Positions 7,647 through 54,807 of a stretch of 64,000 nt of DNA are shown here, in pieces. The notes beneath the pieces are model-generated. The model was not told the origin of the DNA, did not search any database, and saw only the letters and a list, made by a program, of their open reading frames with translations. The stretch is from Pelagomonas calceolata. Its lineage: Eukaryota. Position 1 is the first letter of the stretch, and each line of letters starts with the position of its first letter. The stretch is taken from positions 4,712,001-4,776,000 of the forward strand of contig CAKKNE010000002.1 in the NCBI GenBank assembly GCA_918797485.1, written 5' to 3'. Both the position numbers and the translations under genes were made by a program.

Positions 7647-9432
7647 TCACACGGCCTCGTCGCCGCGGGGCTGCTCGTCGCATATGTCGGGCGCCGGCGG
7701 CCCGCCCTCGCCCCGCTCCCTTCTACGATCAGCCTCCCTTTGTTCCAGCTCTTCTTTGGAGGCACCACCTCCAATATTATCCATCCAGCCGGCCTTGTTG
7801 TGTTTGCCTCCCACCGCCTCCTCGTCGTGGTAACCTGCGTGGAAATCATCGCGTCGACCTCCACGCCATCGACGCGACGCCACGCACCCGACACACTGCT
7901 TGATTTCCACACAGATGATAACGCTTCACGTGCCAGCCCTTCGCGTCGAAGTTCAACCCGGCGTCGCGCAGCATCGTCAGCGTGCCCCGTCGCTCCGGAA
8001 AGCACGTCAGCCGGCACCCGCCCCCGCAGCAGTACCCCAGCGAACCGCCGACGCAGCCGCGGCACGGCCCGAGCAGCCCCAGACCCTCGTGGAACTCCAT
8101 CGTCTCCGTGCCGACGGACCGCGACGCCCCGACGAAGTAGACGTCGTCGACGTTGGCCACGAAATCCTCGACGCACATCCAGAAGATGCCATCATCACTT
8201 TCCCGATCTACTCGTTTCCCCTTCATCGACGTCACGCCTTCAGCCATCCAGGCCGCGTCCTTATCCGAGTACTTTCCTTGCCATTCGCCTTGCGCGTGGG
8301 GGTTCCTTATTTTCAGTAACTTGGCGCCCGACGAGAGCTTGGCGCAGTCCAGGATGCTATAAGCATGGCCCGTGATCAACCCCTGCTCGGCCTTGGCGAA
8401 GGAGCAGCCCACCAGCATGTTTGGGGGTCGTACGTCCATGACAAACCCATGAGACAAAGTCCCATGGATGACGTCGAAGAACTGGTCGTTTGACGTACTT
8501 TGGCAGTACTTCTGGACATCCATCAGGACCCCGTGGTTGCCCGTGAAGCTTTGTAACGCTAGAATCACGTGGCCACCCTCGAGATACCCGTAGGCGCCCC
8601 ACAATTTCGCGAAGGCCTTTTCGAGTAGTAGAACCCAGAGCTCCGGGCCGTTCGGCCGCGAGAAGCGTGGGTGTAGTCCATCGTCGGTCATCGGGATCCG
8701 ATCGTCTATCACGACCGTGGTCCACCGCTCATACCGTACGTCATACAATCTTATACGGTAAATACCACAGGGCTCCACAAAATTCGTCAGGAATAGAGAT
8801 CTTATTATCTCCGGATGGGCCTCAGCTATCGCGCCGATCGCAGCGAGTAACCAGCAGTTCCCAAGGCCTCCTTGTTGCACATCTGCGGCTTCGATCTTGC
8901 CTTCAAATAACTGCGCTCTACCTTTCTCTTGGCCATCTCGCGACTCAACGACGTCCGTAGCTCTAGACCAAGGTATGGTAGCTTCCGAACAGGGGTTGTG
9001 GCAAACACACACGATCTTCGCGCAGCAACAACAAAAAAAGTCCAAACAAGGCTTCGGCCCTCGACCCAACAAGTTATACCCGATCGACGCGTCGTTCGCC
9101 GGGAACCACATGTCCCGGTACTTCGGGAAGACCTTGCCGCATCTCAGGATCTCGCAGCAAAACTTCGACAGCATCATATGCAGCGTTGTGAGTAGGCACG
9201 GGATGACGTAGATCCGCAACCAACCAAGAGCGAAGGCGAAGGGTGCCAGGAACAGATTGGCCAGACAGGCCAACAGCAGACAGAACGGCCGCGGGAAGTA
9301 CCAGCACACTGGTCCCTTTTCTTTTTGGCGCACGTCCCAGAGACACGTCTTGGACAGGGCGCAGCCCCCCACGTTGCAGCAGGGCGGGTCGCCCATGTTG
9401 ATGGTCTTGCTGGGCTGGACCTTGGCCGCCAT
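7647..9432 (-). CDS. Calpain-family (CysPc) cysteine protease with Cys-rich hydrophobic N-terminus; exons 9432-7923 and 7834-7647 (565 aa)
   Basis: Triad motifs QQGGLGNCW, GHAYS, IRNPH; LLEKAFAKLWGAY; splicing gives ...VKRYHDEEAV... Confidence 0.9.
7835..7914 (-). mobile_element. Introner element in calpain gene (intron 7835-7922)
   Basis: TIRs ctgcgtggaaatca / tgatttccacacag; TSD on minus strand GTTATCAT vs GTTACCAC. Confidence 0.9.
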
Positions 9433-10133
9433 GGTCTACGCTACGGCGTTACGACTCGGGTCTTCTGGCTGCCGTGAGTGCTCTGCAGCCACACTGGGAT
9501 TACGATTGGGCAAAGTCCTGGGGCTGCCCGAGGAGTGTGGCCTACAGTAGGACTTCGGATGCTCGAGGCAGCGTCTCCTCGGGGCTGCCGTGGAGAACTT
9601 GTGCCCAGGGGCAGTTCAGGTACCTCTTAAGCTGCTGTGGCAGTGATCTGACCCGCGCTGGACGATCGAGCGCCGCAATACCCGCACGTTCAAAAGTCTT
9701 CGGCTACGTAAACGTCCGCGGGCGACGGAACGGCCGCGGGAAGTACCAGCACACTGGTCCCTTTTTTTTTGGCGCACGTCCCAGAGACACGTCTTGGACA
9801 GGGCGCAGAGCAGGGCGGGTCGCCCATGTTGATGGTCTTGCTGGGCTGGACCTTGGCCGCCATGGTCTACGCTACGGCGTTACGACTCGGGTCTTCTGGC
9901 TGCCGTGAGTGCTCTGCAGCCACACTGGGATTACGATTGGGCAAAGTCCTGGGGCTGCCCGAGGAGTGTGGCCTACAGTAGGACTTCGGATGCTCGAGGC
10001 AGCGTCTCCTCGGGGCTGCCGTGGAGAACTTGTGCCCAGGGGCAGTTCAGGTACCTCTTAAGCTGCTGTGGCAGTGATCTGACCCGCGCTGGACGATCGA
10101 GCGCCGCAATACCCGCACGTTCAAAAGTCTTCG
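9283..10133. repeat. Tandem duplication of calpain 5' end plus promoter (9283-9702 and 9728-10133)
   Basis: 420-bp and 406-bp copies, identical apart from 13-bp and 1-bp deletions; 25-bp spacer. Confidence 0.95.
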
Positions 10134-10453
10134 CTTCTACTGCTCAACGACGCCTCGTCAAGCCTCCCAGCGCGACCCGACGACCCATCTCCGCGTTTGC
10201 GGATGGCCTTACGCATTTTTGCGAGGCTGGGCCACAGCTTAGAGATCCGCTGCGCAGGCCCGTGGCAGGCAGACAAGAGCTTTCGCAGCACCACGGCATA
10301 GCTGGGACCTCACAGCTTTGCCTGCTCGCGCTCGGCGCTGCGCGGCGCTCGCCGGCAAGCAGATTTGCCTCGCTCTCCGAGACACGTGTAAACCAGCATT
10401 CGCGGGCGCGCGCGGGCGAGGGCGCCGTCGCGCTGAGCCGCGCGCGACGCACG

Positions 10454-12112: not shown

Positions 12113-12283
12113 GAGCCTGCTCCTGCCGTGACTGGTGCCTTGCTTCTGCCGTAACTGGCGGGGGCGGGCTGCCGCGCCTAGGAGCCTGCTCCTGCCGTGA
12201 CTGGTGCCTTGCTTCTGCCGTAACTGGCGGGGGCGGGCTGCCGCGCGGTGGATGCCTGGCTTCTGCCGTGACTGGCGGAGGCA
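12105..12283 (+). repeat. 69-bp tandem repeat (2 copies plus degenerate partial) spanning the KH-gene stop
   Basis: Unit gcgcctaggagcctgctcctgccgtgactggtg... starts at 12105 and 12174. Confidence 0.9.
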
Positions 12284-12701
12284 GTTGGGTAAATACTTAT
12301 GATGATGAGTCGGCTCGGCGGCGGGGCGGGCTGCGAGTACTCGTCCTTCGCGTAGCTCCGGCCGCCCGTGCGGTCGAGCCAACGACGCGACCTCGCGTCC
12401 TCGCCTCCGTGGCTCGATGGCGTGGAGGGCGTACGCCAGATCACGGCTCCCGCGACCGAGGGCGCGCTCGTCGCGGCGGCGTCCGCGGGTCCGCAAAGGC
12501 TTGGCTTGCTCGTCGCCTTCGAGATTTGGCACCGAGAGCCGGCTTCGCAGTGCGCCATCGAGCAAACGACAGCACGCAAACGACCGCAGTCGACCGCAGT
12601 CGACCGCCCCACCACCGTGCAGCCCTTGAAGGGCCCGGCGCGGGGCTGCACAGCACTCCAACAAAAGTGGCCTCTGCTTTTCTGCGGGAAATTATCCTAC
12701 G

Positions 12702-14530
12702 ATGACGCCGAACCGCCTGTTGTGCGGCGTCCTGCTCGCCGCCAGCCTCCACTGCGCGCGGGGCAACGCGCACGAGCCGACGCGCGCACCCACTACACAA
12801 GCCGCGGCGCCGACGCCGCGCCCGACCATGACAGACCGCCGCGGCGGGGACGCGGCCGAGATTCCGGTGCGCGCCGCGGCCTTCGCCGCCGCGGGGTTCG
12901 CCGCGCTGGGCCTCATCGCGGCCGCGGTCTGGCACGAGTCCCGCGTCGAGCGAGTGGGGCCTTCGTCGCCGAGCCTCCCGCGCGGGCTCGCTCGGAAGCG
13001 CTGCGGGACGCCGCGGCTCGGCTGGCATGCGTGGACGCCGCGCCTCGCCCAGCCGCGCGCGCCGCGCGGCCGCCTCCTCCCGTCGCGCTCCCGCGTCCGC
13101 CCGACCGCCACCATCACCGTCACCGCACAGGTACCGCCCCAAGGCCGCCAAGAAGACCTACGCCAACCAACTCCCGACGCACACCAAGGGCCAGGCTTCA
13201 CAATTAGTAAAACAAGTGAGAAGACACCAACGCCGCAATACGCCGCCCGACGCGGGGAGCTACTTCCGGCGCCGCCGCCGCCGCGTCTTCGACTGGATTA
13301 ATAATGTTGCGAGGTGGACGTCGGACGGCCCCGAGGAACGCGAGGACGGGTCCCAGCGGGTCCTCCGGCACTACCGCCGCAACCACCTGTCCCTAGAAAC
13401 TTTATCGGCACCACTACCTCTGGGCGAAACATCAAAACAACTCCAGCAAGCCTTGAGTGAAGCTACGTATGCCCCATACCAAACGCGGGTCGACGCCTTC
13501 CAGAAGGCGATGGATTCTACAAGAGTCTCGTGGGAAGTCGGCCGCGTCGAACTACGCATTAGGAGACACCACTGTTTGGTAGACGCCGCAAAGGCCCTCC
13601 AAGACCTACCGTCCCACAAGTGGCGGGAGCCCTGGTACGTCACGTTCGCGAACGAAAGTGCCCTCGACGCGGGCGGTCCCTCGCGCGAGTTTTTTCGTTT
13701 GGTCTCGAAGGATCTGGCGTCCTCCGGCTTGTTCTCTATTGCACATGATGAAAGCTACGCGTTGAAAGCGGACGCCGTGCTATCGGACAAGTTTCCGCGC
13801 GCTCACGAGATGCTGCTGTTGGCGGGCCGATTGTGCGGCAAGGCGCTGCTCGAGGGCCACCATCTGGAACATCTTAGATTGAATCCCATCTTGCTGAAGC
13901 ATGTCGTCGCCGAACCGTTGTCATTGAAAGACCTCGCGTTGTTGGACGGGGACCTCGCCCGGGGTCTCGACGCGTTGCTGAATATGGATCCAGATGACGT
14001 GCCGTCGTTGTGTCTGACGTGGTCCGTGTCCGACGATTTGGATGTGGATGACAAGAAGTGGACGCGCGACCTCGTGCCGAACGGGTCCGAGATTCCGGTT
14101 GCGAGCGTGCGGAAATCGAATTTCGGGCGCCTGCTCGATGGCGTGGAAGTTCTACGCCATCGACGCGGCGTTGCCCCCGTTACCACGGTTCCACGCAGGT
14201 CACCGGCAAAGACGCGCGGGGCTTCGTCGCGGCCCGTTTCTTAGACGCGTGCTTCGCGAAGAGCGCTGATGGTTTGAGAAGCTTCCTCGGGGGTTTATAC
14301 GACGTCGTCCAGCCGGAAGCGTTGATGTTATTAAGCGCGCGCGAGCTGGAACTGCAGCTCTGCGGCGCGGCCGTCATCGACGTGAAAGCCTGGAAAAGAA
14401 GTTGTGTCTACAGGGGCGACTTCGACGTCCAGAGGGGCAACCCCTTCGCGCCGCTGCATCCGGTCGTGCAGTACTTTTGGGATGAGGTGGAATCGTGGTC
14501 CGACGAGCAGCGCGCGCTTTTGTTGCTGTG
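12702..14530 (+). CDS. Signal peptide + transmembrane HECT E3 ligase, 3'-truncated; exons 12702-12937, 13131-14097, 14199-14530
   Basis: HECT motifs FANESALDAGGPSREFF, LAGRLCGKALL, DLVPNGSEIPVT, ELELQLCG, VQYFW; introns restore the frame; catalytic C-lobe end not found. Confidence 0.75.
14106..14198 (+). mobile_element. Degenerate introner in HECT gene (intron 14098-14198)
   Basis: Ends cgtgcggaaatcgaatttcgggcgcc ... ttccacgcag; internal tcgatggcgtgga and cgccatcgacgcg; TSD only 4/8. Confidence 0.75.
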
Positions 14531-14538
14531 GTGCACGG

Positions 14539-14744
14539 CTGTGTGGAAATCAACCAGTGCGTCGGGGGCACCTGACGCCATGTTCGAGGCGGGTCCCGTG
14601 TTTGCGACGGCACGCGATGGAGGGGCGTTCAGCGCCAGTGTGTGAGTTCAGGGGGTGTAGGGGGTTAATACTCACGAATTTGCGGCCTCGGTCTTGCGCC
14701 CAGCGGCTCGTAAGAGCTCTGCAATCCGGGAGTTTCCAACACAG
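14539..14744 (+). mobile_element. Introner left end where the HECT gene breaks off
   Basis: ctgtgtggaaatcaaccagtgcgtcggg preceded by GTGCACGG; possible right end tttccaacacag (14733-14744) but no second TSD. Confidence 0.6.
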
Positions 14745-15039
14745 ATTTTAGGCTGTGACGCCCTTTGCGGCGACCACTGGGGCCAAGGAATAGATAGAAG
14801 GAAGGTTTCCGCCCGCTGGATGTCGCGTTTGCCAACGAGGACGCTGGGAGACGCGCAAAGCTTTTAATCTCAAGTTTGCAAACCTGCTTTTTGCCCCTGC
14901 TTGGGCACCCCGCGCACGCGCGCAGGTCTTGTTGCGAAGCGTTGTACTCTGATACCTCTCTCGTACGCCGACGACGCGCCGTCGACGCGACCGTCCAAAA
15001 CCGCGCCGCGCGAGAAGACCATAGGTTAGTACATACTTA

Positions 15040-18012: not shown

Positions 18013-18868
18013 TCACACAAAAGGCGGCAACAGTCGCGACGGCGTTTTCGCGGCGTAGTTCCGCCACGCGTCCCCGAACTGCTCCTCTAGGATCTTGTCC
18101 TCGCTCGCCATCCGTGGTTTGTAGAACCTCCATGCTGATAGCAGCAGTACCGCGATGGCGAGCGGCGACCCGAGACTGGCGAGGCCGCCGGCGAAGAGAA
18201 AAAGATAAGCCGTGTAGATGGGATGCCGCACGACGCGGTACGGGCCCGTCGTAACGAGTGACTCCGGCGTCACGACGCGGTCGTAGGCCCGGCCCAGCGT
18301 CCACGCGGCGCTCGCACCGATCAGCGTGCCCGCAATCCGCAACGCGAAGAGCTCTCGCGAATTGATCCACCCGCGCGCGCCGCGCCAGGCCCCGAGCCAA
18401 TGGGCCGCCCAGACGCTCAGCAGGAATTGGCCGAACTCGCCGCCGCCGGCGCCCTTCGCCGGCTCCGCGGCGCGCTCCGAGTATTTTCCGAAGCGGTATG
18501 ACCTCGGCAACGTGACCTGCGCGGACGTGTAGACTTTCATGCGGCCGCGTCGACGACGTCACGGCGACCGTGTCGTCTTGAAGCCGACTTCCCGCGCCGG
18601 TTCAGACGACTGCAAAGAATGCGAAATATTCCGTTGAGAGGCGCCAGCCGAGCGCGGGGCGGCCGCAGGCGTAGCACGGCAGCTCCACGAGCAGGCCGAC
18701 CGCGGCGGCCAATTGGACGGGCTGCAGGAGCTTTTGAGTCGGCGAGAGCGGCGTCGCGCCCGCGTCGGACTTTTTGATTGCCTCTGCCTTGCTTACAAAC
18801 CTGGCTGCCGGTAGTACAAAGGCTGCACTCACCGCAGCTATCGCGAGCAGTCTCGGTAGCATGCGCAT
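18013..18868 (-). CDS. ICMT/PEMT-family membrane methyltransferase, likely plastid-targeted; exons 18868-18611 and 18516-18013 (253 aa)
   Basis: LVTTGPYRVVRHPIY and SED..LEEQFG motifs; signal-like AAVSA-AFV; GT..CAG intron 18517-18610 restores the frame. Confidence 0.8.
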
Positions 18869-19008: not shown

Positions 19009-19035
19009 GCTTGCTAGTGCCTTACCGGCCGCTAG
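19009..19035 (+). promoter_or_regulatory. Conserved double-CTAG upstream motif, copy 2
   Basis: gcttgctagtgccttaccggccgctag, ~140 bp upstream of ATG 18868. Confidence 0.6.
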
Positions 19036-21764: not shown

Positions 21765-22063
21765 GTGAGATTTTGTTTGTGCTTTTCCTTTGACAGTCTG
21801 TCATGTGATTGTTACGGTGCTAGGACTAGTGGGCGGAGCCCCTGGGGGGGAGTGTTACCGCGCGTCTAGAGCGCACGGCGCGGTGGCTAGTTCCTTTTTC
21901 CGCCATTGCTGCATGAGTTCCAGCTACGCCTCCGGACGCGTTGCTGCGGCGTGCGGCGTCGGCGTCAGAGGGCCTCAAGTGTGCAACTTTTGGACTCAGT
22001 TCGACGACTGCCACGCTGTTCGCGCCGTACACCTCGCACAAGCAGACATTTGTCGCAAGCATC

Positions 22064-23242: not shown

Positions 23243-25644
23243 ATGCGCAGATTCCTACTTCTAGCACTCACCGCAGCCAGCGCGCATGGCAAGAAAGCGG
23301 TGATAGGCTTCGACATCGGCACCGAGAGCGTGCGAGCTGGTTTATTCGACGCCCAGTCGGGGGAACTCCTCGCCACGAAGTCACACCCGCACGAGACGCG
23401 GTTCCCGCAGCCCGGCTACGCCGAGCAGTCTCCCTCAGATTGGTGGGCCGGCATGGGCGAGGCCTGTCGAGCAGTCGTGCAGGAGTGCGCCGATGTTGAT
23501 GTGGTAGCGATCTGCCTCGCGGCGACGTCGTGCACGGTCGTGGCTTGTGGTGAAGACGGCGCGCCGCTGCGCGACTGTCTCCTGTGGATGGACCAGCGGG
23601 CGGCCGCGGAGAGCGACGAGATTTTACGGCTCGGCGACGGCGACGCCGCGCTCAACGTCAACGCGCAGGGCAAAGGGCCCATCTCCGCGGAGTGGATGCT
23701 TCCGAAAGCCTTGTGGCTCAAGAAGCACGAACCTGAAATCTATGCCGCCGCCAACGTAATCTGCGAGTGCCAGGACTGGCTCAACCACAAGTGCACCGAC
23801 ACATGGGTCGCGGGCGGCTGCAACGTGGCGACGCGCTGGCACTGCGACGGCAAGGCGGCGTGCGAGGAAGTCGAGAACGGCCGGTTCGGCGGCCGGCCGT
23901 CGGAATTACTACGTAGGTGCGGTCTCGAGGCCCTGGAGGAGAAGTGGCCGCGGACGTGCGTCGCGATGGGCCAGCCGGCGGGCGCGCTCACGGCCGCCGC
24001 CGCGGCACACCTAGGGCTGAAAGAAAACACACCGGTCTCGCAGGGCGGCGCCGACGCCTTCGTGGGACTCGTGGGCCTGGGCACCGCGACGCGCGGCGGC
24101 GTCGGCGTCATCACCGGGTCTTCAAGTCTACACCTGGCCGTGGCGCCCGCGCCGCCGAAGGGCCCGCCGCGGGGCGCGCCCGGCGTCTGGGGCCCCTACC
24201 GCGGCGCGCCGCTGGCGGACCTGGCCATGTCCGAGGGCGGCCAGTCGACGACTGGTGCAGCTTTACAGTGGGCGCGGCGCATCTTCGGGGACGCGTCCTT
24301 CGACGACCTCGAGGCCGAAGCTTCAAAACTGCCGGTCGGCGCCGAAGGTTGTGCTGCATTGGAGACGTTCCAGGGCGCGCGGACGCCCGAGACGGACCCC
24401 AAGGCGCGCGGGGCGCTCTACGGTTTGACGCTCAAGCACGGCCGCGGCCACGTCTGGCGGGCGCTGCTCGAGGCAACGGCGCTTGGTACTCGCGCGAGCG
24501 TCGACGCACTTACGCAAAATGGGCCAAAGGAAGATCTTGCGCTGTCCGGCGGCGCGACGCGGTCCAAGCTCTGGCTCCAGATGCACGCCGACGCCTGCGG
24601 CCGCGACGTTGTTGTCTGTGTGGCAGTCAAATTTCAGGCCGTTATCCCGTCACTGAAGGTCCCTGAACACAGGTTATAATCGGCGAGTCGGCCGAGGCGC
24701 CTTTATTAGGTTGCGCCGTGCTCGCGAGCGCGCTCGCGGGCGTCCACCCTACTATAAGCGAGGCGGTCGAGGCCATGGTCCGGCCGGCGCGGCGCATCAA
24801 GCCCGACGCCGATGCGGCAAAGGCCTTCGATGCCTTGTACGACCGCGTCTACCGCCACGGCTTCTCGGCGCTCAAGCCGCTGTCGCACCGAACCTCGACT
24901 GAGGCAACCGCTGCATCCGACGATCGAAGAGGCGTCGTCGCCGCGTCACTCCTCGCGGCCGACGCCGGGCATTTAGGAGATGCGGCCGACGCCGTGCTAC
25001 ACGCCGGCGCCGACTGGCTCCACGTGGATATTTTCGACGGTTCGAAGGCGTCGAACGGCGCCCTGTCGTCGATGGGGCCCCAGACCGTGAAGGCGTTGCG
25101 GCGGCGGCTTCCAGACGCCTATTTAGACGTACATGTTGGCTGCCGCGACCCTTCGGCTGTTGTCGAGACGCTCCTCGCGGACGGCTGTTCCAGCGGGCTC
25201 ACGTTCCAGTTCGAGTCCTGCGCGAGTCTGGATGCGGCCAAGGCGCTCGCCGGCGAGATAAGGCAGGGCGGGTGTGATGTTGGTATCTGCCTGGCGCCGG
25301 AGACGCCAATCTCCGCCATAACGTCACTCCTGGACGCGGGGCTCGTGGACATGGTCGACGTGTTGGCCGTCGCACCGGGCCGCGGCGGCCAGTCGTTTGA
25401 TGGTGCCGCGGCCCTGCCGAAGCTGCGCGCGCTCCGCGAGAAGTACCCGGGCCTGCGGCTCCAGGTCGACGGCGGCATCGATGCGACGACCGCGCCGGAT
25501 GCCGTGGAGGCTGGCGCGGACGTCCTGGTCGCGGGGTCGTATATCTTCCGGGCGGGAGACGCTGCCGAGGCCGTAGCAGCTCTGCGCGAGGCGTTTCCTT
25601 CCGAGACGTCGCCGCGGGAAAAACGGTGGCCTTGGCAGAGATAA
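23243..25644 (+). CDS. FGGY pentulose (ribulo)kinase fused to ribulose-phosphate 3-epimerase; exons 23243-24607 and 24673-25644 (778 aa)
   Basis: GFDIGTESVR, LLWMDQRA, FQGARTP, SGGATRS (FGGY); ASLLAAD, HVDIFDG, LDVHV, PGRGGQSF, QVDGGI, LVAGS (RPE); 65-nt intron joins both in frame. Confidence 0.85.
24616..24672 (+). mobile_element. Short degenerate introner (intron 24608-24672)
   Basis: Left end ctgtgtggcagtcaaatttcagg, right end aacacag; TSD GTTGTTGT vs GTTATAAT. Confidence 0.7.
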
Positions 25645-28153: not shown

Positions 28154-28343
28154 GTCGGACTCGCGGGCGCCTGCACAGCTCGATACGCAAGTGTTGCAAG
28201 GCCTTAGGCCGCTCGTGCACTCGTTTGATACCCAGCTTTCGGCGTGCAGCTCAACAGCTCTCAGAAAGGGCTTGCCGCCCAGCACTGCATAGTGCCCAAG
28301 CCAGCAAGCAAGAAAGGCGGCGCGGCGCGTCGGCGAGCAAGCA

Positions 28344-31300
28344 ATGGCCGACGACGACGTGCGCCTCACGCTACTAGCCGACTTCCGCCTCGCGCAGATC
28401 ACAACAGACCCGCAGAGCGCCGTCGCCGGCGCCGGCGTCGCCGTGCTCGACCGCCACGGCGTCGTCTGCGTCGGCGCGGGGCGCGAGATCGTTTGTGTGG
28501 AGGCGGCGGCGCTCGAGGCCGCCGCCTGGGCACGGTACGACGACTCTAAAAAATCGGGCGGCTCGAAGCGGCGCGAGGGCGCGGCGCCGCCTTCCCTGAC
28601 ACGCGCGGAGCTTGCCGGACCGTGCACGTGCTGCGCCGCTTCATCGGACGCCGCCGTCGTGGCCGCGGCGTCGAGTCAAGATGTTGCGGTCTTTGCGGTC
28701 GAGCGCGGGCCCTCGCTGCGACGCGTCCGCGCGACGCCCCATGCCAACGTGACGGCTCTGGCCGTCTCGGCCGACGGCGCCTGGGTCGCCGCGTCCACTT
28801 CCACCAAAACGACCGTCTTCAAGGTCGATGGAGGCGGCGACATGGAGCTGGACGGCTCCCACGCGGCCTTCCGCGGAGCCAAGCTCGCCGTGGCCTCGAG
28901 CGAGGGCGTCGTGACCTACGCTTTGGCCAACGACGTCTGGCGCGAGGAGGGCCGCGTGGGTGCGGACGCCGACTCGCTGGGCGACGACGACGCGCGGTCA
29001 CCACATTTCGTGCGCTGGCTCGACGACGCGAGAATTTTACTAGGCTTCCGCCATACGGAAGATGCCCTGGCGCGGGCCATCGTCGTCGACGTCTCCAGTA
29101 AAACGGTGACGACCTACGCGGCGGATTTAGGTGACACGGTCGTCGCGTTTTTTGATCGGGAGGCGCCTGGTTCTCCACATACCTTCTTCGCCGCGTCATC
29201 TAGGAGTGGCTTGTGTCTGGTCGCCTGCAATTTGAGCAGGGACGTCGGCGTGGTACGGGAGGACCCCGAGCAACCTGGTGCTTATTATTTACATGAGGCC
29301 TACGACGAGGCGGCGCTCGTGTGTCAGACGCCCTGCCAGTCGTTCCAGGGCGACGAGCGCGAGACGCTGGTCGCGGGGCTGGGGGTGCTGGCGACGGGCG
29401 TGGCGCGGGCGGCGCCGCCCGCGGACCCTTCGCTGCCTGTGCCGCCCGACGCGCCGCCGGCGGCGCTCGTCGTGCTGCTGTCGACGGCGGGGCTCCTCTC
29501 GTGCTACGCGCTGGCCGACGACGAGCGGCCGGCTTCTAGGGTCGCCGCCGCGCCGCTGCCGGCGCCTTCCGCCGCCGCCGCGACGTCGAGCTATCCGCCG
29601 ATGCCTTCCAAACCACCGAGCAAGCTGCCCTTCGGCGCGCCCGCCCCGGCGCCCGCGCCGGCGTTCTCCTTCGGCGGCGCGGCCGCGGCGAAGCCCTCGT
29701 TCTCCTTCGCGGCGCCCGCGCCCGCACCCGCCGCCGCGGCGAAGTCGGGCTACCCGCCCATGCCCACGAAAGCGCCGAGCAAATTACCCTTTGGGGCGCC
29801 GGCGCCCGCCGCCGCGGCGAAGTCGAGCTACCCGCCCATGCCCACGAAAGCGCCGAGCAAATTACCCTTCGGCGCGCCGGCGCCCGCTGCCGCGAAATCG
29901 GCCTACCCGCCGATGCCCACGAAAGCGCCGAGCAAGCTTCCGTTCGGCGCGCCCGCGCCCGCTGCCGCGAAATCGGCCTACCCGCCGATGCCCACGAAAG
30001 CGCCGAGCAAATTACCCTTTGGGGCGCCGGCGCCAGCCGCCGCGGCAAAATCGAGCTACCCGCCGATGCCCACAAAAGCTCCCAGCAAGCTACCCTTTGG
30101 ATCTCCTGCGCCGGCCGCCGCGAAGCCGTCCTCGGGCTACCCGCCGATGCCCACGAAGGCTCCCAGCAAGCTTCCGTTCGGCGCGCCCGCGCCCGCGCCG
30201 GCCGCGAAGCCGGCGACCTTCGGCTTCGGCAGTCCCGCGGCCGCACCGGCGCCTGCGAAATCGGCCTACCCGCCGATGCCCACGAAGGCTCCCAGCAAGC
30301 TCCCCTTTGGAGCACCTGCGCCGGCGCCAGCGGCGAAGCCGGCGGGGTTCGGCAGTCCCGCGCCGGCCGCGCCGACGACGCAAGAGGACCTACCCCCCGG
30401 CTGGTCCCTGCAAGTCCCCAAAGACGCGGAAGAGGCCGAGAAGTGGCGCGTCTGCCTCGAGATGGAGCAGGCCATGAGTGCCATGAGAAAAGAATTACAA
30501 ATCGCGAAGGCAGCCATCGCCCCGCAATTGAAAAAGGGCCAAGAAGATTTACGGAAGGAACGGGCGTTGTTGGCCGAAGCTAGAACAACTGCTCTCGCAT
30601 TAGAAGCGCAGGAGCGCGAGTTCGGCGAAGCGAGGGCCGCATTGCTCGGTTCCGTGGAAACGGCCCAGCGCCAGAACGAAGAGACGCGGGCCAATCTAGA
30701 TATCGCCGAGGGCATGATGGCCGACTGCACCGATGAACAATTGAAGAAGAAGGCCAAGGACTGGGAGGAGGTCCTCAAGCACCAGGAGTTGGACGCGGCC
30801 AGTCAGCGGCAGCTAGATAAACTTACGAAACTATCAAGTGAGGTCGCCGACAAGTTGGCCGAGGTGTCTTTGGTGAACTCGCACCGAGAAGCTTTGTCAA
30901 AACAAGCCGATGTGGGAGACACGTCCTTCTTCGGGTCTCCTCGAGACGCGCCCTCGTTCGGGACCGCTCGAGTGAAAAGTTCGTCGCAGAACGACGCCGC
31001 CGCGTTTTTGCGGAGAGTCCGGGCGACCTACGAGCAGACGCTGCAGTTGCAGGAAGTTATTATTCCTTCATTGGATAAGAGGTGGGACGCGGCCTGTGCT
31101 GAGAGGGACAGGCTCAAAGCCCTCAAGACCGATTTGTCGCCCGAGATCGAGGCGGCCATGAAACGCGATTGTGAGGCGCGCAAGGGCATCGAACCGCCCC
31201 CTCTCGAACCCTGGGAGCAGGCCTTCATCAAAATGTGTCAGGAGAACACGCCTCCCATTGTAAGGGATTGCCGACCAATGCACCAACGGACCAAACCTAT

Positions 31301-33203
31301 ACCAGGGGCGATCCCCGACGACCACTACCCTCAGCAGACATTCGTGTCTCAAAAGGTCGAAGAACCGAAGCTGGCGACGCACGTCGAGGGCCTGAAGGGC
31401 GCGGCGGCCGTGCCCTGGGCGAAAGTTCATAGAGAGGCCGTGCACCGCGCGAAGCTCGAAACGCCGTCCACGCCGTCGACGCCCGCGCCGGCGCCGGCGC
31501 CCGCGCCGTCGCTGGGCTTCGGCGCCGCCTTCGGCGCGGCCCTGGACGCGCCCGCGCCGGCGCCCGCCGCTCCATCATCGTCGACCTACCCGCCGATGCC
31601 CTCCAAGCCACCGAGCAAGCTGCCCTTCGGCACGCCGGCGCCCGCACCGGCGCAGAAGAAGAAGGCGAGCCCGTTCGGCGGCGCCTTCGCGCTCGAGGGC
31701 CTCGGGGCCGCGTTGGAGGCCAAGGCCGCGGCCGCGGGCGCCGCGCCTGCTGCCGCACCCGCGCCTGCGGCCTCTGGCGGCTTTGGCGCCGCCACGCCGG
31801 CACCGGCGCCCGCTGCCTTTGGCGGGTTTGGAGCGCCGGCGCCCGTGCCCGCGCCCGCGCCGGCGGCGCCGGCCTTCACGCCCGCGCCCGCACCGGCTTT
31901 TGGTGCGCCTGCTGCGGTGCCCGCGCCGGCGCCCGCGGCGACGCCTTTCGGCGGCTTCGGCGCGCCCGCAGCCGGCGGTGCCGGCGACGCGCGCGCTAAG
32001 GTCGTCGAGATCTACCAGAAGTGCAACCCGACGAAGCTTTCGGAGGTCGACAAGCTCTTGGCCAAATACGCGGGCAAGGAGGCCGAGCTCGTGCTACGAC
32101 TCCAGAAGAAGTACGCGGCGCAGCTCGGCTCGCCGGCCGCGGCGTCCCCGTTCGGACAAACCCCGGCGCCGGCGGCGTCGCCGTTCGGCCAGGCGCCGGC
32201 TCCTGCTGCATCGCCCTTTGGCGCACCCGCGCCCGCCGCCGCGTCGCCGTTCGGGACGACACCGGCCGCTGCATCGCCGTTCGGCCAGACGCCCGCGCCC
32301 GCTGCCTCGCCGTTCAGTGGCAGCGCGCCGGCACCCGCGCCCTTCGGCGGCAGCGCGTTTGGGAGCCCCTCAACGCTCGGTGCCGGCGGCTCGGCCTTCG
32401 GGAGCACGTCTAGCCTCGGCGCGGGCGCCGCAGCCTTCGGGAGCGCGTCGGCGCTCGGGACTCCGGGGTTCGGAGCCGCGGGCGGCGACGCTCGATCAAA
32501 AGTTGTCGAGATCTACCAGAAATGTAACCCCACGAAGCTCGGCGAAGTCGACAAACTGCTGGCCAAGTACGCGGGCCGCGAGGCCGAGCTCGTCGCGCGG
32601 CTCCAGAAAAAATACGCGGCGCAGCTCGGAAACGCAGGCGGTGGGTTCGGCCAGCCCGCGGCCCTGGGCGGCGCGACGTTCGGCGGGGCGGCCGCGGCGC
32701 CGAGCGCGGGCTTTGGCGGGTTCGGCGGCGGCGCCGGGGCATCCACTGGCGGATTCGGCCAGCCCGCGGCCCTCGGAGGCGGCTCGGCCTTCGGCGCCAC
32801 GTCGACGCTCGGCGGGGGCGGTGCGACGTTCGGCGGGGCGGCGGCGGCGCCCAGCTCAGGCTTCGGAGGCTTCGGCGGCGGCGCGGCCGCTGCGCCGACG
32901 AGTGGTTTCGGCGCCGCGGCGCAGGCCCCGGCGTTTGGCTCGCCAGCGGCGCTCGGCGGCGGCGCGGCGTTCGGCGGCGCGTCGCCGGGTGGCGGCTTCG
33001 GTGGAGCCGCGGGCGCGCCGAGTTCTGGCTTCGGAGGTTTCGGTGGGGCGGCCGCCGCGCAGTCGCCAGGCTTCGGCCAGCCCCAGCAACAGCCCGCGTT
33101 CGGCGGCAGCGGTTTCGGCTCGCCCGCGGCGCCCGCCTTCGGCCAGCCACAGGGGCAGCAGTCGTCCACATTCGGGCGGAGCTTCACGCAATTCCGGGGC
33201 TAG
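28344..33203 (+). CDS. Nup214/Nup159-like FG nucleoporin (1619 aa)
   Basis: N-terminal beta-propeller-like region, central coiled coil, long FG/xFGG tail ending SFTQFRG. Confidence 0.75.
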   Translation: MADDDVRLTLLADFRLAQITTDPQSAVAGAGVAVLDRHGVVCVGAGREIVCVEAAALEAAAWARYDDSKKSGGSKRREGAAPPSLTRAELAGPCTCCAASSDAAVVAAASSQDVAVFAVERGPSLRRVRATPHANVTALAVSADGAWVAASTSTKTTVFKVDGGGDMELDGSHAAFRGAKLAVASSEGVVTYALANDVWREEGRVGADADSLGDDDARSPHFVRWLDDARILLGFRHTEDALARAIVVDVSSKTVTTYAADLGDTVVAFFDREAPGSPHTFFAASSRSGLCLVACNLSRDVGVVREDPEQPGAYYLHEAYDEAALVCQTPCQSFQGDERETLVAGLGVLATGVARAAPPADPSLPVPPDAPPAALVVLLSTAGLLSCYALADDERPASRVAAAPLPAPSAAAATSSYPPMPSKPPSKLPFGAPAPAPAPAFSFGGAAAAKPSFSFAAPAPAPAAAAKSGYPPMPTKAPSKLPFGAPAPAAAAKSSYPPMPTKAPSKLPFGAPAPAAAKSAYPPMPTKAPSKLPFGAPAPAAAKSAYPPMPTKAPSKLPFGAPAPAAAAKSSYPPMPTKAPSKLPFGSPAPAAAKPSSGYPPMPTKAPSKLPFGAPAPAPAAKPATFGFGSPAAAPAPAKSAYPPMPTKAPSKLPFGAPAPAPAAKPAGFGSPAPAAPTTQEDLPPGWSLQVPKDAEEAEKWRVCLEMEQAMSAMRKELQIAKAAIAPQLKKGQEDLRKERALLAEARTTALALEAQEREFGEARAALLGSVETAQRQNEETRANLDIAEGMMADCTDEQLKKKAKDWEEVLKHQELDAASQRQLDKLTKLSSEVADKLAEVSLVNSHREALSKQADVGDTSFFGSPRDAPSFGTARVKSSSQNDAAAFLRRVRATYEQTLQLQEVIIPSLDKRWDAACAERDRLKALKTDLSPEIEAAMKRDCEARKGIEPPPLEPWEQAFIKMCQENTPPIVRDCRPMHQRTKPIPGAIPDDHYPQQTFVSQKVEEPKLATHVEGLKGAAAVPWAKVHREAVHRAKLETPSTPSTPAPAPAPAPSLGFGAAFGAALDAPAPAPAAPSSSTYPPMPSKPPSKLPFGTPAPAPAQKKKASPFGGAFALEGLGAALEAKAAAAGAAPAAAPAPAASGGFGAATPAPAPAAFGGFGAPAPVPAPAPAAPAFTPAPAPAFGAPAAVPAPAPAATPFGGFGAPAAGGAGDARAKVVEIYQKCNPTKLSEVDKLLAKYAGKEAELVLRLQKKYAAQLGSPAAASPFGQTPAPAASPFGQAPAPAASPFGAPAPAAASPFGTTPAAASPFGQTPAPAASPFSGSAPAPAPFGGSAFGSPSTLGAGGSAFGSTSSLGAGAAAFGSASALGTPGFGAAGGDARSKVVEIYQKCNPTKLGEVDKLLAKYAGREAELVARLQKKYAAQLGNAGGGFGQPAALGGATFGGAAAAPSAGFGGFGGGAGASTGGFGQPAALGGGSAFGATSTLGGGGATFGGAAAAPSSGFGGFGGGAAAAPTSGFGAAAQAPAFGSPAALGGGAAFGGASPGGGFGGAAGAPSSGFGGFGGAAAAQSPGFGQPQQQPAFGGSGFGSPAAPAFGQPQGQQSSTFGRSFTQFRG

Positions 33204-42343: not shown

Positions 42344-45300
42344 ATGGCGCAGCAAATACCCTTAACGTTTAGCGAGGTGCTCAACCTGCCGAGCCTGGGC
42401 GTCTCGGCGAACGCGATAAAATTCGGCGTACGCGACCTGAGTGAATAATGACCTTCCCGCCCGCGCCGCGCCGCCTTAGCTGTTTCCCCGTATTATCGAT
42501 CCGAACGCCCCGCGCGCGCCGCGCCGTTTCGCACCGTCGCGCGCGAAACCCCCGCGGAACGCCCACGCCTCGTTTCCTCACACAGTCCTGCGCCATGGAG
42601 TCCGACGCCTTCGTGAGCGTCTGCGACGGCTCGTCCGGCCAGCCCCAGGTTTTTATTGTGGACCTCAAGAACGGCAACCAGGTCATGAAGCGGCCGATGT
42701 CTGCTGAAGCCGCGATCATGAACCCGGTGAGCAAGATCCTGGCCTTGCGGGCGGGCCAACAACTACAAATCTTCAATCTGGAGTTAAGAGCCAAGATGAA
42801 GAGCCACCAGATGCCCGAGGCCGTCGTCTTCTGGCGCTGGGTCTCGCCGTCGACGATCGCGCTGGTCACACCGACCGCGGTCTTCCATTGGTCGACCGAG
42901 GGGTCCTCAGCACCCTCAAAAGTCTTCGACCGCCATGCGCAGCTCGGCGAGGGCACGCAAGTCATCAATTATCAAGTAAGCCCGGACGAGAAGTGGTGCC
43001 TCCTCATGGGCATCAGTCAAGGCGGCGCCGGCGTTATTAAAGGAGCGATGCAGTTGTATTCCAGAGACAAGTCGGTCTCGCAGACCTTGCAAGGCCATGC
43101 CGGCTGCTTCCACACCATGTCCGTGCCCGGTCGAACGGACAAGGCCCAGGTCCTCTGTTTCCAGGAGAAGAAGGAAGGCCAGCCCGCGAAGCTCTTCGTC
43201 ATGGAAGTTGGTCGAGATGCGTCGGCCGGCGCGGCGTTCCGACTGGCCCCAGTGCCCATCCCGGTGCCGGGCGACGCGCAGAACGACTTCCCCGTGTCTA
43301 TGTGAGTTGCAGTGTCCGTGACGCTTACGCCATCGCCGCGCGTCGTCTCCGTCAGACGAGGTCGTTCCGAGAGGACGCGGTCACGTCGATGGCGTCTTGA
43401 GACCGCGCCGCCGCGACGGCGTCGACGCGATGCCACGTCGACGCGGCCGTATCGAGGGAGCTGCAGCATCGTAACATCGCACACACAGGCTCGCCTCGCC
43501 GAAGCACGACATCCTCTACATGGTGTCGAAGATGGGCTACCTCTACTTGTTCGACTGTCTGAGCGGCAAGGCCTTATGTAGGGCTAGAATCACGACGGAC
43601 ACCGTCTTCGTCACGTGCCCTCAAACCTCCACCGGAGGCATTCTGGGCGTCACCGCGAGAAAAGGCCAATTATTACAAGTGTCGGTCAACGAACAGACGC
43701 TCGTGCCGTACGTCGTCTCGACGCTACGAGACACGCAATTGGGAATAGCGTTAGCCGGAAGACTAGGCTTACCAGGAGCCGACGACTTGTACGCGCAGGA
43801 GTTCCAGCGCCAGCTCGCCGCTGGTGATGTCTCTGGTGCCGCAAAAACAGCGGCAGACTCGCCCAACGGCATGCTGAGAACGGCAGAAACCATCCAAAGG
43901 TTCCAGGGTTTACCAGGACAGCCGGGCCAGCCCCAGCCCGTCTTCCAGTACTTCCACCTGTTACTAGAGAGAGGCAAGCTCAATTCCTTGGAGTCGATGG
44001 AGCTTGCTAAGCCCGTCATCGCGCAGGGGCGCACGCAGTTCCTCGAGAAGTGGCTCACGGAGGACAAGTTGGAGTGCTCGGAGCAGCTCGGTGATTTAGT
44101 AGTACAATCGGATGTCAATATGGCTCTCTCAGTATACTTGAGAGCCAATGTCCCCGAGAAGGCCGTGAATTGCTTCTTGCAACGGGGCGAGTACGACAAG
44201 ATCGCGGCGTATGCCGCGAAGGTCGGCTACCGCTGCGATTATGGAGTTATGCTCGGCAACCTAGCCAGGCAGAACCCCGCTGGCGCGCTAGATTTTGCGA
44301 AACAACTTAGTGCGGGTTCATTGGTGGATCCGAACGCCGTGGTAGAAATCTTCATGGGCCTGAACCGCATCCAGGAGACGACGGCGTTTCTGTTGGAAGC
44401 TTTGAAAGGTAACAAGCCCGAAGAGGGCTACCTCCAGACCAAATTGTTAGAAATCAACTTACGAGGCGGCTCCCCACAAGTGGCCGATGCCATTCTCCAG
44501 AACGCCATGTTCACGCACTACGACCGCCAGTACGTCGCGAAGTTGTGCGAGAGCTGTGGGTTGTCTCAAAGGGCTTTAGAACACTACACGGACACGGACG
44601 ACATCAAACGGTCACTGCTCGCGATGTGCAGCAACCCGCAGCAGTTGAATCCCGAATTTGTCCTGTCCTACTTCGGTTCGCTGTCTCCTGAAGCCTCATT
44701 GGACTGTCTTCGCGAATTATTACAGCGCAACATGCGGGGCAACATGCAGATCGTTACCCAGGTCGCCGCGAAATACAACGAGCAGATCGGGGCCGAGCCG
44801 CTGGTCGAGCTGTTCGAGGGCTTCAAATGCTACGAAGGGTTGTTTTATTATTTAGGACAGATCGTGAACTTTTCTCAAGATGCTTTAGTGCATTTCAAGT
44901 ACATCGAGGCGGCGGCGAAGTGCCAGCAGTTCAAGGAGGTCCGTTGTCCGGTGTCCTGCCTACGCCATCGTCGCGTCGACTGCGTGGAGGCGGACGCGAG
45001 GGCACGCCATCGACGCGATACACACGCAGGTTGAGCGCGTCTGCCGCGATAGTACCGTGTACGACCCCGAGACGGTGAAGCAGTTCCTGATGGACGCCAA
45101 ACTGCCCGACCCGAGACCGTTGATCCACGTCTGCGATAGACATGATTTTGTGGAAGAAATGACGTCGTATTTGCACAGCAACCAGCTCCAGAAGTACATT
45201 GAGGTCTACTGCAACAAAGTCAGTCCCCAGAAGACGCCGTTAGTCGTGGGCAAACTCCTAGATCTCGACGCGAACGAGGACTTCGTGCGCGGGTTACTCA

Positions 45301-50253: not shown

Positions 50254-50613
50254 CATGGCACAGAGCATCAAATCACCCTCAGAGAAGCCAGCAATTACGC
50301 ACTCACCCTGATCAAACTAGGGCGCTACGCAGAAGCCAGGGCATTTACACGCAATAGAATGCCCGTAGCCAGCCGCGTTCTCGGAGATAATAACGACATC
50401 ACGCTCAAGATGAGGAGGACTTACGCGATGGCACTTTACAGGGACGCCGGCGCCTCGCTCGACGATGTCCGCGAGGCCGTGACGACGCTCGAGGAGTCGA
50501 AACGGACCGCCCGGCGTGTTCTCGGCAGCGCCCACCCAACAGTAAGCTGGATAGAGCGGTCCCTGCGAGATGCGCGAGCGGCGCTCCGCGCCCGCGAGAC
50601 GGGGGACGCCTAA
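50254..50613 (+). pseudogene. Startless C-terminal fragment of a TPR-like helical-repeat family gene
   Basis: Reads HGTEHQITLREASNYA...RVLGDNNDITL...RRVLGSAHP; no ATG between the stop at 50112 and the start of the repeats. Confidence 0.65.
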
Positions 50614-50642
50614 GCTACTAACAGATTACACCACAATAAAAA

Positions 50643-53600
50643 TCAAGCCAGCCCGTCGTGCAACAACAACCGCAGGATCGCCCCGACGACGGCCGACCCG
50701 AGCACGTCCAGCTGCGGCCGCTCGGCCTTGTCCACGAGCAAAGCGTCGAAGTGCTCCCTCAGAGCAGCAACCAACGCCCCGACGCGCGCGTGCGCCGCGA
50801 AGGAGACCCAACCATCCACCACAATCGACCCCTGCAACGGCCGCGGCTCGACCCTGCCCCCGAAGAGCAGGACCGCGTACGGCGCCGCCTCGCCGCAGTC
50901 GCGTATGGACACGCGGTGCGTCTCGACGCACTCGCCGTAGACGGCCCAGGGCGACGGCCACGAGCGCTCCGCGTAGCACGACGACGTCGGGTGTAAGAAA
51001 GCTCTTTCGAGCTGCCCCGTCGGCGTCCTTCTGAGAAACCGCAGTTCCCGCGCTTGGGCGTCCATGGCAATGTTCCCCTCCGACGTCTCGGCGTATTTCT
51101 GCGAGGGCTTCTCGATCTTCACTAAACGCGGATACAGCGCGCCGGCGACGACCGCGCGTGCGACGCGCCAGAGCGCCGGTCCCGACAGTTGCGTGGCGTA
51201 CGACCCGAAGCCGCGGTCCGAGAGCGCGCCGTCCAACTGTTTGACTAGGGACAACGCGTCCTCCAAGGGGTCCGCGCTCAAGCCGCGCTGCGCGCACCAG
51301 TCTCGTAAAGCCCGTTTCCGCGCCCAGCCCCGCTGTGACCTGTGCGCAAATCGACCAGTGAGTCGGGTGCAGTCGCGTCGATGGCGTGGAGGTCGACGCA
51401 GTGAGTCGGGTGCACGCCACCGAGCAGGCATCGCGTCGATGGCGTGGAAGGCACCGTGACGTGTTGATGCACAGGTTGGGACGAAGCCTCGGCATAGGCC
51501 CGCAACGCCAACGCATCTAGGGCGTGGTCCGACCGGCCGCAGCCGTGCCGCTCCCGCAACTCCTGGCGGAATTTTGCTGCTAAAGGCCTATCATCAGGAT
51601 GCGACCGCCACGGGCTTCTCCCCCCTAGACCGGCCGCGACCCGCAACGCCTCGTCGCGCACGCCCAGGGACGCCCCGAGCACCAGGAGCTTGCCTAGTCT
51701 CGGCGCGCACGGGAGGTGGGCTAAATGACGGCCCAATGGAGTTAACTTCTTTGACGAGACAGCACCCAAGTCCGAGAGCTCCCGCAACGCTTGCTGTAAC
51801 GTATCAGGTGAAGGAGGATCGAGCAGCGATGGAGCAAAGGTCTCGACGTCGAGGTCCATCGACAGGACTTGCAGACACAACCCATCCAAGCCGACCCTAT
51901 GGATCTCCGGTGTGGTGTGCTCCCCAAAGCCCTCGAAGAAGGACTTGGGACACAGCCGGTAGCACCGGCCCCGCCGCACGCGGCCCGCCCGACCTTTCCT
52001 TTGCTTCGCGGCATCCTGGCGCACCCACACCTCCTTCAGACACGGTAACGACCTAGAAGCGTCGTAGCCCGTCTCCTTGCATCGCAACGTGTCCACCACC
52101 GCCGTCACGTCGGGTATGGTGATACTGGTCTCAGCCACATTGGTAGCAACAACTATTTTTGTTTTACCTTTAGGTGCCGTATCGAAGGCTCTACGTTGGT
52201 CCTTTGCGGGTAGGGAACCATGTAAAGGTAGGGGGTACAATGTAGGGTCTCGCTCCAGTATTCTACAGATCTGTGTTATTTCTAGAGCACCACTCACGAA
52301 GACCAATACCGCACCGGTTGAATCTCTCTGAAATTCATCCAGAGCGATAGCTCGACAGGCGTCGGCGACGAACTGCACATCCAATCGTTGCGGCGTCGCC
52401 GTCCAGGCCTCCTTTTCTCTACGAGTCATCTCTTCGTCCTGATCTAGTAACCTCTTGACATCATTCAAATAACTCACGTCGACGGGATGCGCGAATCCTG
52501 GTATAGATAGGACGGGACACCTGCCCTTATATAGCTGAGGATTGAGATCGGCGAAGTACCGCGAGAACCGACTCGTGTCCATCGTTGCCGACATCAGGAT
52601 GACTCTCAGGGAAGGTCGCTTTTGTAGTAGTGGCCTTAGTAAAGCTAACAACAAATCGGCATCCAGGTGCCGTTCGTGCACCTCATCGACAATCAGGTGT
52701 GTTATGCCTTGTATATTAGTGTCGCTCCTTAGACGTTGTAGTAACACCCCAGTCGTGCAGAACAGCAAATGGGAGCCCATCGACACTTCCCCTCTTACTG
52801 CTACTCCGACCGTACTACCGACGTGTTCGCCCCGTTCTTCAGCGACTCGGGACGCGACACCCACCGCAGCCACTCGCCTTGGTTGGGCCACCACTATCTT
52901 GATCGGTTCAGTCGCATTATCTAATAAAAATTGGGGCACCTGGGTCGTCTTACCACATCCGGTACCGCCCTCAATTAACATGACCTGGTACTTGGATACC
53001 GTATCGATAACGTTGCTAGCCTCTTTGTGCGCGGGCAGCGTCTTCCGTTGTAGTGTGATGGATGTCCTAGGCTGCGATGGCGGTGGCGGGCCATTCGAAG
53101 GCTGCGACCACCAGTCGGGGCCCCGTCGACGCATGCGCCGCGGCGGTCGCGGTGCGACGACGGGCGCCGCCTTCGGTTGAACGACGGGCGGCGGCGGCGG
53201 CACATCCACAGGATTCTTAGCAGCCTCGACGAGATCGAAGAGCATGGGCTCGCCCACCAAGGAGAAGGCGAGCGTCGCCCACGCCGCATGTGCTTTTTGT
53301 GACGCGCCCTTCTTGAGGACCATGGCCGGTATCGACGGGTACGTTGATGGTACCAGCAAGCACGCGTCCCCCATGGTCATCACCGAGCCCTGGTCCTCTT
53401 TTACAGCAGTAACGTCGAGCGTCGCCTCGAGGGCCTCGATTTCATCAGTCTCACCACCTTCCCCCGCTTCGAAGGACGCGTCCGGCCTTGCGAGTCTAGC
53501 GCATTGGGTCCACCTACTACAAAAGTCGCCCTCAACCGCAAAAGAAGCTACTTTGCGAGAAACAACAACGTCCAGATTCGCGCCGCTCTTCGGGTCGAAC

Positions 53601-54807
53601 GTCTCCGGTAAATCGCCCTCGTCCACATGGAGACATAAATGAGCCAACGCCGCCTCGGTAGCTTGCAAGGCATCATTTGTTGATGTCGTAGCCACGGCCT
53701 CGACGGCCTGGCCCGGCCGAAAGCCTAGACCAACTAAGTGTTGCGCCGCGTCCCTCTTCGCACCTTCGAGGTCTGCCAATTTTTGGAGGTCGTTCGAACT
53801 TCCACCGTCGTCCTCCTTTGTTCGCTGTAAACCTAACGCCTCCACGACGGCGCGCCTTACGGAAGGCGCCATATAAACTCGAGCGTCGGGGTTGGCCCGC
53901 TTCCGCGCCTCCCGCGCGTGCGTCCTTTGGTTCCGGACGGCCTCCTTGGCGCGCCTCGCCCTATCGGCCTCGGCCCTCGACGCGTGGGCGCGGTCCATCG
54001 TCGGCACTACTATAGAAGGCTTCTCCGGCGCGGCGGCGGCGGCCTCCTCGAGATTATTCTTCGAGCCCTTGCGCGGGAGCTTCGCCGGCTCCTTCTTCGC
54101 CGTGGCCGCGCCTGCGTGGAATCAAATTTCGGGCGCCCCACGCCGTCGACGCGATGTTGTCCCCGTGGCAGCGTCGGCTCGATGGCGTGGAGGTCACGAA
54201 GGTCCACGCTATGATTTCCACACAGGCCCGCGCCCATGGCGAGCCACGTGCTCCGGTAGGGCTCCGGTAATTTCCGCTCCAGAGGGAGACTCCCTTGCGT
54301 CTGCTTCAGAGCTAATAGCGCAGCATTCTCCTTCGCCACACTTTCGGAAGGAAACGCCTCGGCGGGGCAGAAGGCCAGGTCGTGCTCGGCGCCCCGCCTC
54401 TTGGGATCGGGCACGATACACCTGGAACGGTGCTTGCCCGGCGGCGCGGGTTTGGCCGGGTGCCATCTAGGTTTCGGCCGCTTCTCGCGCTGGCACCACT
54501 CACCCAGCATCTGGGAGGGCAACTTCTCGTGCGTTTTCAAGGTCAAACCCTTCACTTCCTTGGGACCCTTGTCCGTGAGCTTCGACGCGATGCGCTGGTC
54601 CCGACTCCCTTTGCCGACCCATTTTTGCACCTCGCCGTCCCATCGGAAGCCGTGGTCGGGCTTGCCGTCCTTTTTCGTGGGGCGTTCCGGCCTTATGCCG
54701 CACTCGCACCGTCTTTCACACTCGCAGCGTTTTTGTACTGGCTCCTTGCCCTTGCCCTTCTTCTTCTTGTCGGCCTTCGAGGGCGGCGGGGGCTTGTCGC
54801 GACCCAT
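50643..54807 (-). CDS. DHX57/DHX29-like DEAH-box RNA helicase; exons 54807-54234, 54111-51483, 51339-50643 (1299 aa)
   Basis: GGTGCGKTT, QPRR, DEVH, MSAT, TNVAETSIT, QRKGRAGR; dsRBD-like and UBA/RWD-like N-terminus; OB-fold-like C-terminus; introns restore the frame. Confidence 0.92.
51340..51474 (-). mobile_element. Introner in helicase (intron 51340-51482)
   Basis: Ends ctgtgcgcaaatcgaccagtgagtcggg ... gatgcacag; TSD on minus strand GTCCCAAC vs GTCACAGC; two internal tcgcgtcgatggcgtgga. Confidence 0.85.
54112..54225 (-). mobile_element. Introner in helicase forming a GC-AG intron (54112-54233)
   Basis: TIRs ctgcgtggaatca / tgatttccacacag; TSD on minus strand GCGCGGGC vs GCGCGGCC (7/8). 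Confidence 0.9.

Follow-up and report, generated by a model that had tools for sequence, protein, structure and literature searches.

Five introns of Pelagomonas calceolata read as shortened copies of a 203-nt inverted-repeat element

Why do five introns in four genes of one stretch of Pelagomonas calceolata DNA have similar ends, and what made their splice sites? We analysed this stretch of 64,000 nucleotides (hereafter the window), in which an initial annotation had placed five introns and, at 14531, a broken copy of the same sequence. All six were confirmed at the coordinates given there (Table 1). Removal of the introns joins the reading frames of a calpain, a HECT ligase, an FGGY kinase-epimerase fusion and a DEAH helicase. 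Each intron begins with eight nucleotides that resemble the start of the next exon, followed by CTG or a decayed form of it, and ends in CAG. We read the five, with a probability of about 0.93, as shortened copies of a non-autonomous 203-nt element with terminal inverted repeats (TIR), likely moved by cut and paste and flanked by an 8-bp target duplication. They are spliced from the GT or GC of the upstream target copy to the terminal AG of the element, which is shown for three introns and predicted for two.

Table 1. Features of the window; alpha and beta are subfamilies of the element, and matches are identical positions
Feature	Position	Strand	Host gene and intron type	Element content and orientation	First 8 intron nt vs first 8 nt of next exon (of 8)	End-to-end ungapped match (of 14)
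E1	7835..7922	-	calpain gene, 88 nt, GT-AG, phase 1	target copy GTTATCAT (8 nt) + 80-nt deleted alpha element, forward, left end at donor side; exonic target copy 7827-7834	6	13
E2	14098..14198	+	HECT ligase gene, predicted intron, 101 nt, GT-AG, phase 0	deleted beta element, reverse	4	6
E3	24608..24672	+	FGGY kinase / ribulose-phosphate epimerase fusion gene, predicted intron, 65 nt, GT-AG, phase 0	strongly deleted beta element, reverse, without core	5	7
E4	51340..51482	-	DEAH helicase gene, 143 nt, GT-AG, phase 2	rearranged alpha element, reverse, left end at acceptor side	6	8
E5	54112..54233	-	same DEAH helicase gene as E4, 122 nt, GC-AG, phase 1	deleted beta element, forward, left end at donor side	7	10
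Broken copy	14531..14576	+		8-nt target GTGCACGG (GT start) + left ~38 nt of alpha element
Likely empty site	24430..24437	+	kinase-epimerase gene	single GCTCAAGC
Further RNA-confirmed GT-AG introns	43302-43488, 44939-45029	+	clathrin heavy chain
Further RNA-confirmed GT-AG introns	58122-58218, 58489-58599, 59035-59176	-	anoctamin
Further RNA-confirmed GT-AG intron	18517-18607	-

The likeness of the ends is preserved to different degrees. The terminal 14-mer CTGYGTGGAAATCA occurs exactly four times in the 64-kb window (7835, 7901, 14539 and 54212) and never in 100 shuffled versions. The shared termini described initially are exact at these four places and decayed at the remaining ends, with a decayed TIR in four of the five introns. 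The eight nucleotides at the two sides of the elements agree at 28 of 40 positions in total, and none of the five window introns has a perfect 8-bp duplication. An 18-nt core, previously attributed to most copies, was found within two mismatches in four of the six and is absent from E3 and from the broken copy. The window copies are deletion forms in which the element part spans 57-135 nt, and their alignments to full-length copies score above all controls. E1 is identical to a full-length alpha copy at 76 of 80 nt, while E2 and E5 are identical to beta at 80 of 93 and 103 of 114 nt, respectively. The local score of E3 against full-length copies exceeds those of all 150 control segments.

Splicing at these positions is directly visible for three introns. 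Poly-A RNA reads skip the 88 nt of E1 (82 + 74 reads, one contig), and RNA reads skip the 143 nt of E4 (11 + 7 reads, two contigs) and the 122 nt of E5 (3 and 0 reads in two runs, one contig). The position of the E5 joint is ambiguous over 7 nt, and the sequence offers an AG acceptor only at the cut listed in Table 1. The mapping of RNA junctions thus bears out three of the five introns; E2 and E3 have no joint among the 15 of 107 joints listed. We excluded as evidence the RNA runs that hold small shares of the words of the window. Thousands of RNA reads from elsewhere match the element ends, which indicates that the family is repeated in P. calceolata.

Annotated proteins and domains add to this picture. 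The spliced helicase of the window is identical at 1299 of 1299 residues to a protein labelled P. calceolata that is also found as a transcript (P0194). The calpain gene has a PF00648 match in the exon upstream of E1. In the HECT gene, the profile matches positions 11-133 before and 154-239 after the predicted intron E2, and homologs are colinear across it. The kinase-epimerase and another protein with the P. calceolata label (P0155) agree at 778 of 778 aligned residues; one additional Val in P0155 at E3 means that its annotation uses a donor at 24611 (a 62-nt intron). Orthologs without the intron have the length expected from a donor at 24608. The E3 donor may therefore be either of two candidates 3 nt apart: the orthologs fit 24608 and the annotation of P0155 fits 24611.

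To characterise the family outside the window, we scanned metagenome contigs with the 21-nt left end, which gave at least 120 loci and at least 124 left ends among the matches listed. A right end within 600 nt was required for pairing; 84 of the 124 listed left ends were paired, and the other 40 were excluded as unpaired (contig end, decayed or missing right end). The 84 listed pairs have distinct flanks and represent a repeated family at unrelated sites. Their inverted repeat, CTGYGTGGAAATCAA, is present at both ends and spans 15 bp, not the 14 bp of the initial annotation. Among these 84 listed copies, flank identity peaks at 0.84 for a length of 8 bp, compared with 0.20-0.32 at lengths 2-7 and 9-12. 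The 8-bp duplication is perfect in 37 of the 84, and the 8-bp flanks match at 566 of 672 positions, where the maximum in 10,000 re-pairings was 301. A GT or GC donor stands at the edge of the duplication, in one or both directions, in 83 of the 84 listed copies, against a frequency of 0.32 for random 8-mers. This donor is usable with the left end at the donor side in 35 of the listed copies, with the right end in 29 and both ways in 19; the one-way copies among the matches listed have 51 GT and 13 GC donors. Hence, the listed metagenome copies substantiate both the 8-bp duplication and the use of both orientations, as proposed from the window.

Element lengths range from 54 to 377 nt among the 84 listed copies, 13 of which measure exactly 203 nt. 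The full-length copies fall into three subfamilies, to which the listed copies were assigned by best score: alpha (58/84), beta (22/84) and gamma (4/84). Their mutual identity is 39-49% (ungapped, ends included); the interiors differ, and the length of exactly 203 nt is common to all three (L005, L009, L012 and others). Gamma has no core and its loci are richer in G+C (0.68-0.73); these copies may come from another pelagophyte. The motif ACCAGTG adjoins the left repeat, and AAATTTT (alpha) or AATTT..GGCGC (beta) adjoins the right one. What had been taken for two subterminal types of element are therefore the left and right ends of a single asymmetric element, both in the 84 listed copies and in the alignments of the window. 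The longest paired element (377 nt, L025:707-1084) appears to contain or abut a second copy of 125 nt with a common right end. The 21-nt left end has no match in viral contigs. Four matches of the 18-nt core in viral contigs were taken as chance, since none has an inverted end or a likeness longer than 27 nt. Rfam gave no match at gathering score in the window.

These observations suggest a simple course of events. A transposase encoded elsewhere, hAT-like by the length of the duplication, would move the 203-nt element into exons and duplicate eight target bases upon insertion. Splicing, shown at three sites and predicted at two, starts at the GT or GC that opens the upstream target copy and finishes at the terminal AG of the element. 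With CTG...CAG at both ends, the element brings an acceptor whichever way it lies, and the removal of the element together with one target copy restores the original length. Insertions lacking GT or GC at the start of the target would be removed by selection, and deletions would then shorten each copy where it stands, from the initial 203 nt to 57-135 nt. The central claim of the initial annotation, an acceptor brought by the element and a donor taken from the 8-bp target copy, agrees with the RNA joints of three of the five introns, with the 84 listed copies and with relatives lacking the insertion at four of four sites compared.

The identity of the enzyme is the part of this account that faces the most serious competition. 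Most hAT elements have ends that begin with YAG, with the terminal consensus YAGNG. The ends of the present family begin with CTGYG (the first three letters were fixed by the search pattern) and depart from that consensus. The same anatomy could thus have arisen through a mover of a non-hAT superfamily with 8-bp duplications, with the GT/GC bias reflecting a target preference of the enzyme instead of selection, an alternative that we consider unlikely though a genuine contender. The hAT class of the closest published family (fam2, see below), in the available part of its source, rests on a Repbase match to hATv-2N1_EHux (PMC12130899), and hATv is described in the accessible text of PMC10138859 as a small haptophyte group, one member of which has 7-bp duplications. 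Among the rows listed of the P. calceolata annotation table, there is one transposase row (Tc1-like) and no PF05699. The donor is available both ways in 19 of 83 listed copies, where about 8 would be expected from independent sides, which favours a target preference; among the 37 listed copies with perfect duplications there are 4 such cases, near the 3.6 expected from one-sided selection, which argues against it. Short inverted ends together with an 8-bp duplication are in keeping with hAT, as in the Ace family described in the available part of PMC10138859, and fam2 is classed as hAT in print (PMC12130899). The duplication length and the published class speak for a hAT-type mover and the terminal motif against it; we infer hAT membership, as has also been done in print.

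One point against the account is that no mover came to light in the ORFs scanned. As initially stated, the window holds no transposase: none of its 111 ORFs of at least 170 aa has a transposase domain. None was found beside unpaired ends in 23 of 98 ORFs either, where L026, L066 and L069 are followed by host-type genes or by nothing known. The paired copies do not exceed 377 nt among the 84 listed, so none of them is a long element.

The splice sites could also predate the element, if old introns had later been hit by it or homogenised with it. Among the six other RNA-confirmed introns of the window, four have the core or rank with the highest-scoring controls but lack inverted ends and any clear duplication, which shows that element-like sequence can occupy introns of other make. 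In E1 to E5, however, the intron ends coincide with the end of the element and the start of the duplication, the donor lies at the duplication edge in 83 of 84 listed copies, and relatives are without the intron at all four sites compared; we find this origin very improbable. Spread through RNA by reverse splicing of excised introns, as proposed for fungal introner-like elements, is the least credible reading: stable hairpins in four of five copies (z -2.2 to -3.7) and the lack of a transposase in the ORFs scanned would fit it, but the inverted ends account for the hairpins, the elements lie either way round with respect to splicing where intron RNA would have a fixed direction, and the first eight intron nucleotides come from the local target where a fixed 5' end of the family would be expected.

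Insertion of full-length elements followed by shortening is consistent with the state of the copies. The longer the element, the better its duplication matches (Spearman 0.36, p 0.0009, n=84 listed copies), and perfect duplications are found in 13 of 19 full-length copies against 12 of 36 copies shorter than 150 nt (listed copies). Where homologous proteins of different relatives read into E2 or E4, a single site has several versions of the interior. The poorer duplications of the shorter copies and the differing interiors at single sites suggest that copies shrink after insertion and do not move as short forms.

We scored empty and filled sites from homologous proteins for E2 to E5; these entries may repeat the same populations. 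At E2, nine homologs read into the element, whereas five close ones and seven more distant ones run through; the close empty homologs are identical at 110-115 of 118 residues, and one at 35 of 36. Four homologs are filled at E3, where nine of an 83% cluster run through, and four at E4, where one close homolog and eleven of a 61% cluster run through. None of 13 homologs is filled at E5. Some of the proteins that run through one site read into an element at another (P0199, P0132 and P0193 run through at E5, P0011 and P0147 at E2), so that such proteins were likely translated from unspliced DNA in which the site is empty. P0199 enters E4 just as the window does, yet has the spliced sequence of the window at E5; at the protein level, it appears to be the clearest example of an empty site at which restoration is exact. 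The converse is seen at 24430, where the window has one copy of the target and 12 of the 27 homologous proteins covering the site read into the right end of an alpha element. At the protein level, relatives thus lack the insertion at four of four sites compared, the kind of empty site that the initial annotation had proposed to seek in other strains, and the insertion sites look polymorphic among close relatives. Among the metagenome loci listed, the overlap with window genes is nowhere close enough to reveal an empty site as DNA.

The claim that splicing restores the original codons holds at E5 and is less simple elsewhere: the E3 donor is disputed, and the two residues before E2 differ between filled and empty alleles. 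The six exon bases 14092-14097 read IP in nine of nine filled alleles, against KN, RG or RS in the five close empty ones, and hence the protein at E2 is not simply the ancestral one. The GATTCCG before E2 resembles the reverse complement of a nearby repeat end, and with it a G precedes the donor. How this exon might have changed is a matter of guesswork: template switching is one idea, selection that improved the donor another.

The broken copy lies in the same HECT gene. It has no right end and no second target copy, and the sequence beyond it is unrelated. The last ~50 codons of the gene are missing past this point, where the homologs P0004, P0007 and P0008 continue with WCTG-SSR.., and a tblastn search found no match to this tail in the window. 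The ~50-residue tail of the homologs includes an HTCFN motif, which presumably holds the catalytic cysteine. The gene is thus likely truncated at the element, to judge from these alignments, through a deletion, a rearrangement or an error of assembly. RNA depth is 0 at 13304-13967 in all four runs mapped. We did not accept outright that the gene is silent: four other runs contain 0.76-0.80 of the words of 13000-15000, and one of them is RNA-like elsewhere.

Other features of the window deserve mention in their own right. Four of the six further introns have core-like sequence, with local scores that 0-2 of the 150 controls attain, and the introns at 43302, 58489 and 59035 are mutually alike; from their sequences, they possibly belong to a second or older introner family. 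A core-like stretch at 12378-12429 has one match in L001 and no flanking inverted ends, and a 45-nt stretch at 21808-21852 is also present in L023 and draws reads from elsewhere. Between the calpain and KH-domain genes, a 300-nt direct repeat (9378-9677 and 9809-10108, 431 nt apart, 100% identical) is either a recent duplication or an assembly fault. A pair of 98-nt repeats (47-144 and 2221-2318) is 94% identical. The fusion of the FGGY kinase to ribulose-phosphate 3-epimerase (23243-25644) is common in algal homologs. An ORF of 1636 codons (28293-33203) with Pro/Ala/Phe-Gly repeats has no Pfam match; we take it to resemble an FG-repeat nucleoporin.

Overall, the five introns are a clean case of transposon-driven intron gain, for which the mechanism and a matching P. 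calceolata family are already in print. Our analysis adds the length of the duplication, the asymmetry of the ends, the use of both orientations, the decay with age and a likely presence/absence variation among close strains. We found no publication on strain polymorphism of P. calceolata introns in a search that left out most subscription journals. An evenly balanced conjecture is that the birth and maturation of introns are still segregating in wild Pelagomonas: site occupancy would differ between strains, each strain would have its own deletions, the exon next to a new donor could change (from KN to IP at E2), half elements would be left in genes that they had killed, and movement would be confined to elements of exactly 203 nt in spite of their different interiors, implying a size ruler in transposition. 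If this is true, ocean metagenomes would allow direct measurement of the gain, decay and cost of new introns. The details added here could make P. calceolata a convenient system in which to measure the fixation and shrinkage of new introns.

Introner elements were reportedly described in Aureococcus anophagefferens by Huff, Zilberman and Roy in 2016. As far as the available descriptions go, those introners resemble the window family in having a TIR, a target duplication, a length of ~210 bp and a pair of splice sites of which the element brings one and co-opts the other, and they differ in belonging to another species than the host of the window. An equal splice geometry is reported for other genomes in the accessible part of Gozashti et al. 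2022 (bioRxiv). In P. calceolata itself the kind is already known, and very likely the very same family has been catalogued. The available part of Gozashti et al. 2025 (PMC12130899) lists 11 introner families in this species. No family consensus was found in its supplements, and GTGGAAATCA has no match in 12 of the 14 files. One of the families, fam2 (340 copies, 202 bp, 13-bp TIR), is given there as TIR DNA / hAT with the mechanism "co-opt 5' carry 3'", and two others, fam3 and fam39, measure 203 bp. Compared by description, fam2 (also 3 and 39) and the window family have in common the species, a length of 202-203 bp, a TIR (13-14 bp in the published families) and the splice mechanism. The donors of fam2 are gt:281 and gc:42, next to 51 GT and 13 GC among the listed one-way copies of the window family. 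The families differ in that the TSD columns of fam2 read NA in the accessible tables of PMC12130899, whereas we measured 8 bp, and in that the window copies are deletion forms of 57-135 nt, compared with 202 bp for fam2. Guerin et al. 2022 (PMC9481584) report, in the available part of the article, 956 putative introner elements in P. calceolata. That part makes no mention of duplication length, orientation, subfamilies or polymorphism. It describes introns whose lengths peak at about 210 bp, with GT or GC as donor, an AG acceptor and a conserved TIR; the full-length element of the window family with its duplication has a similar length (203 + 8 = 211).
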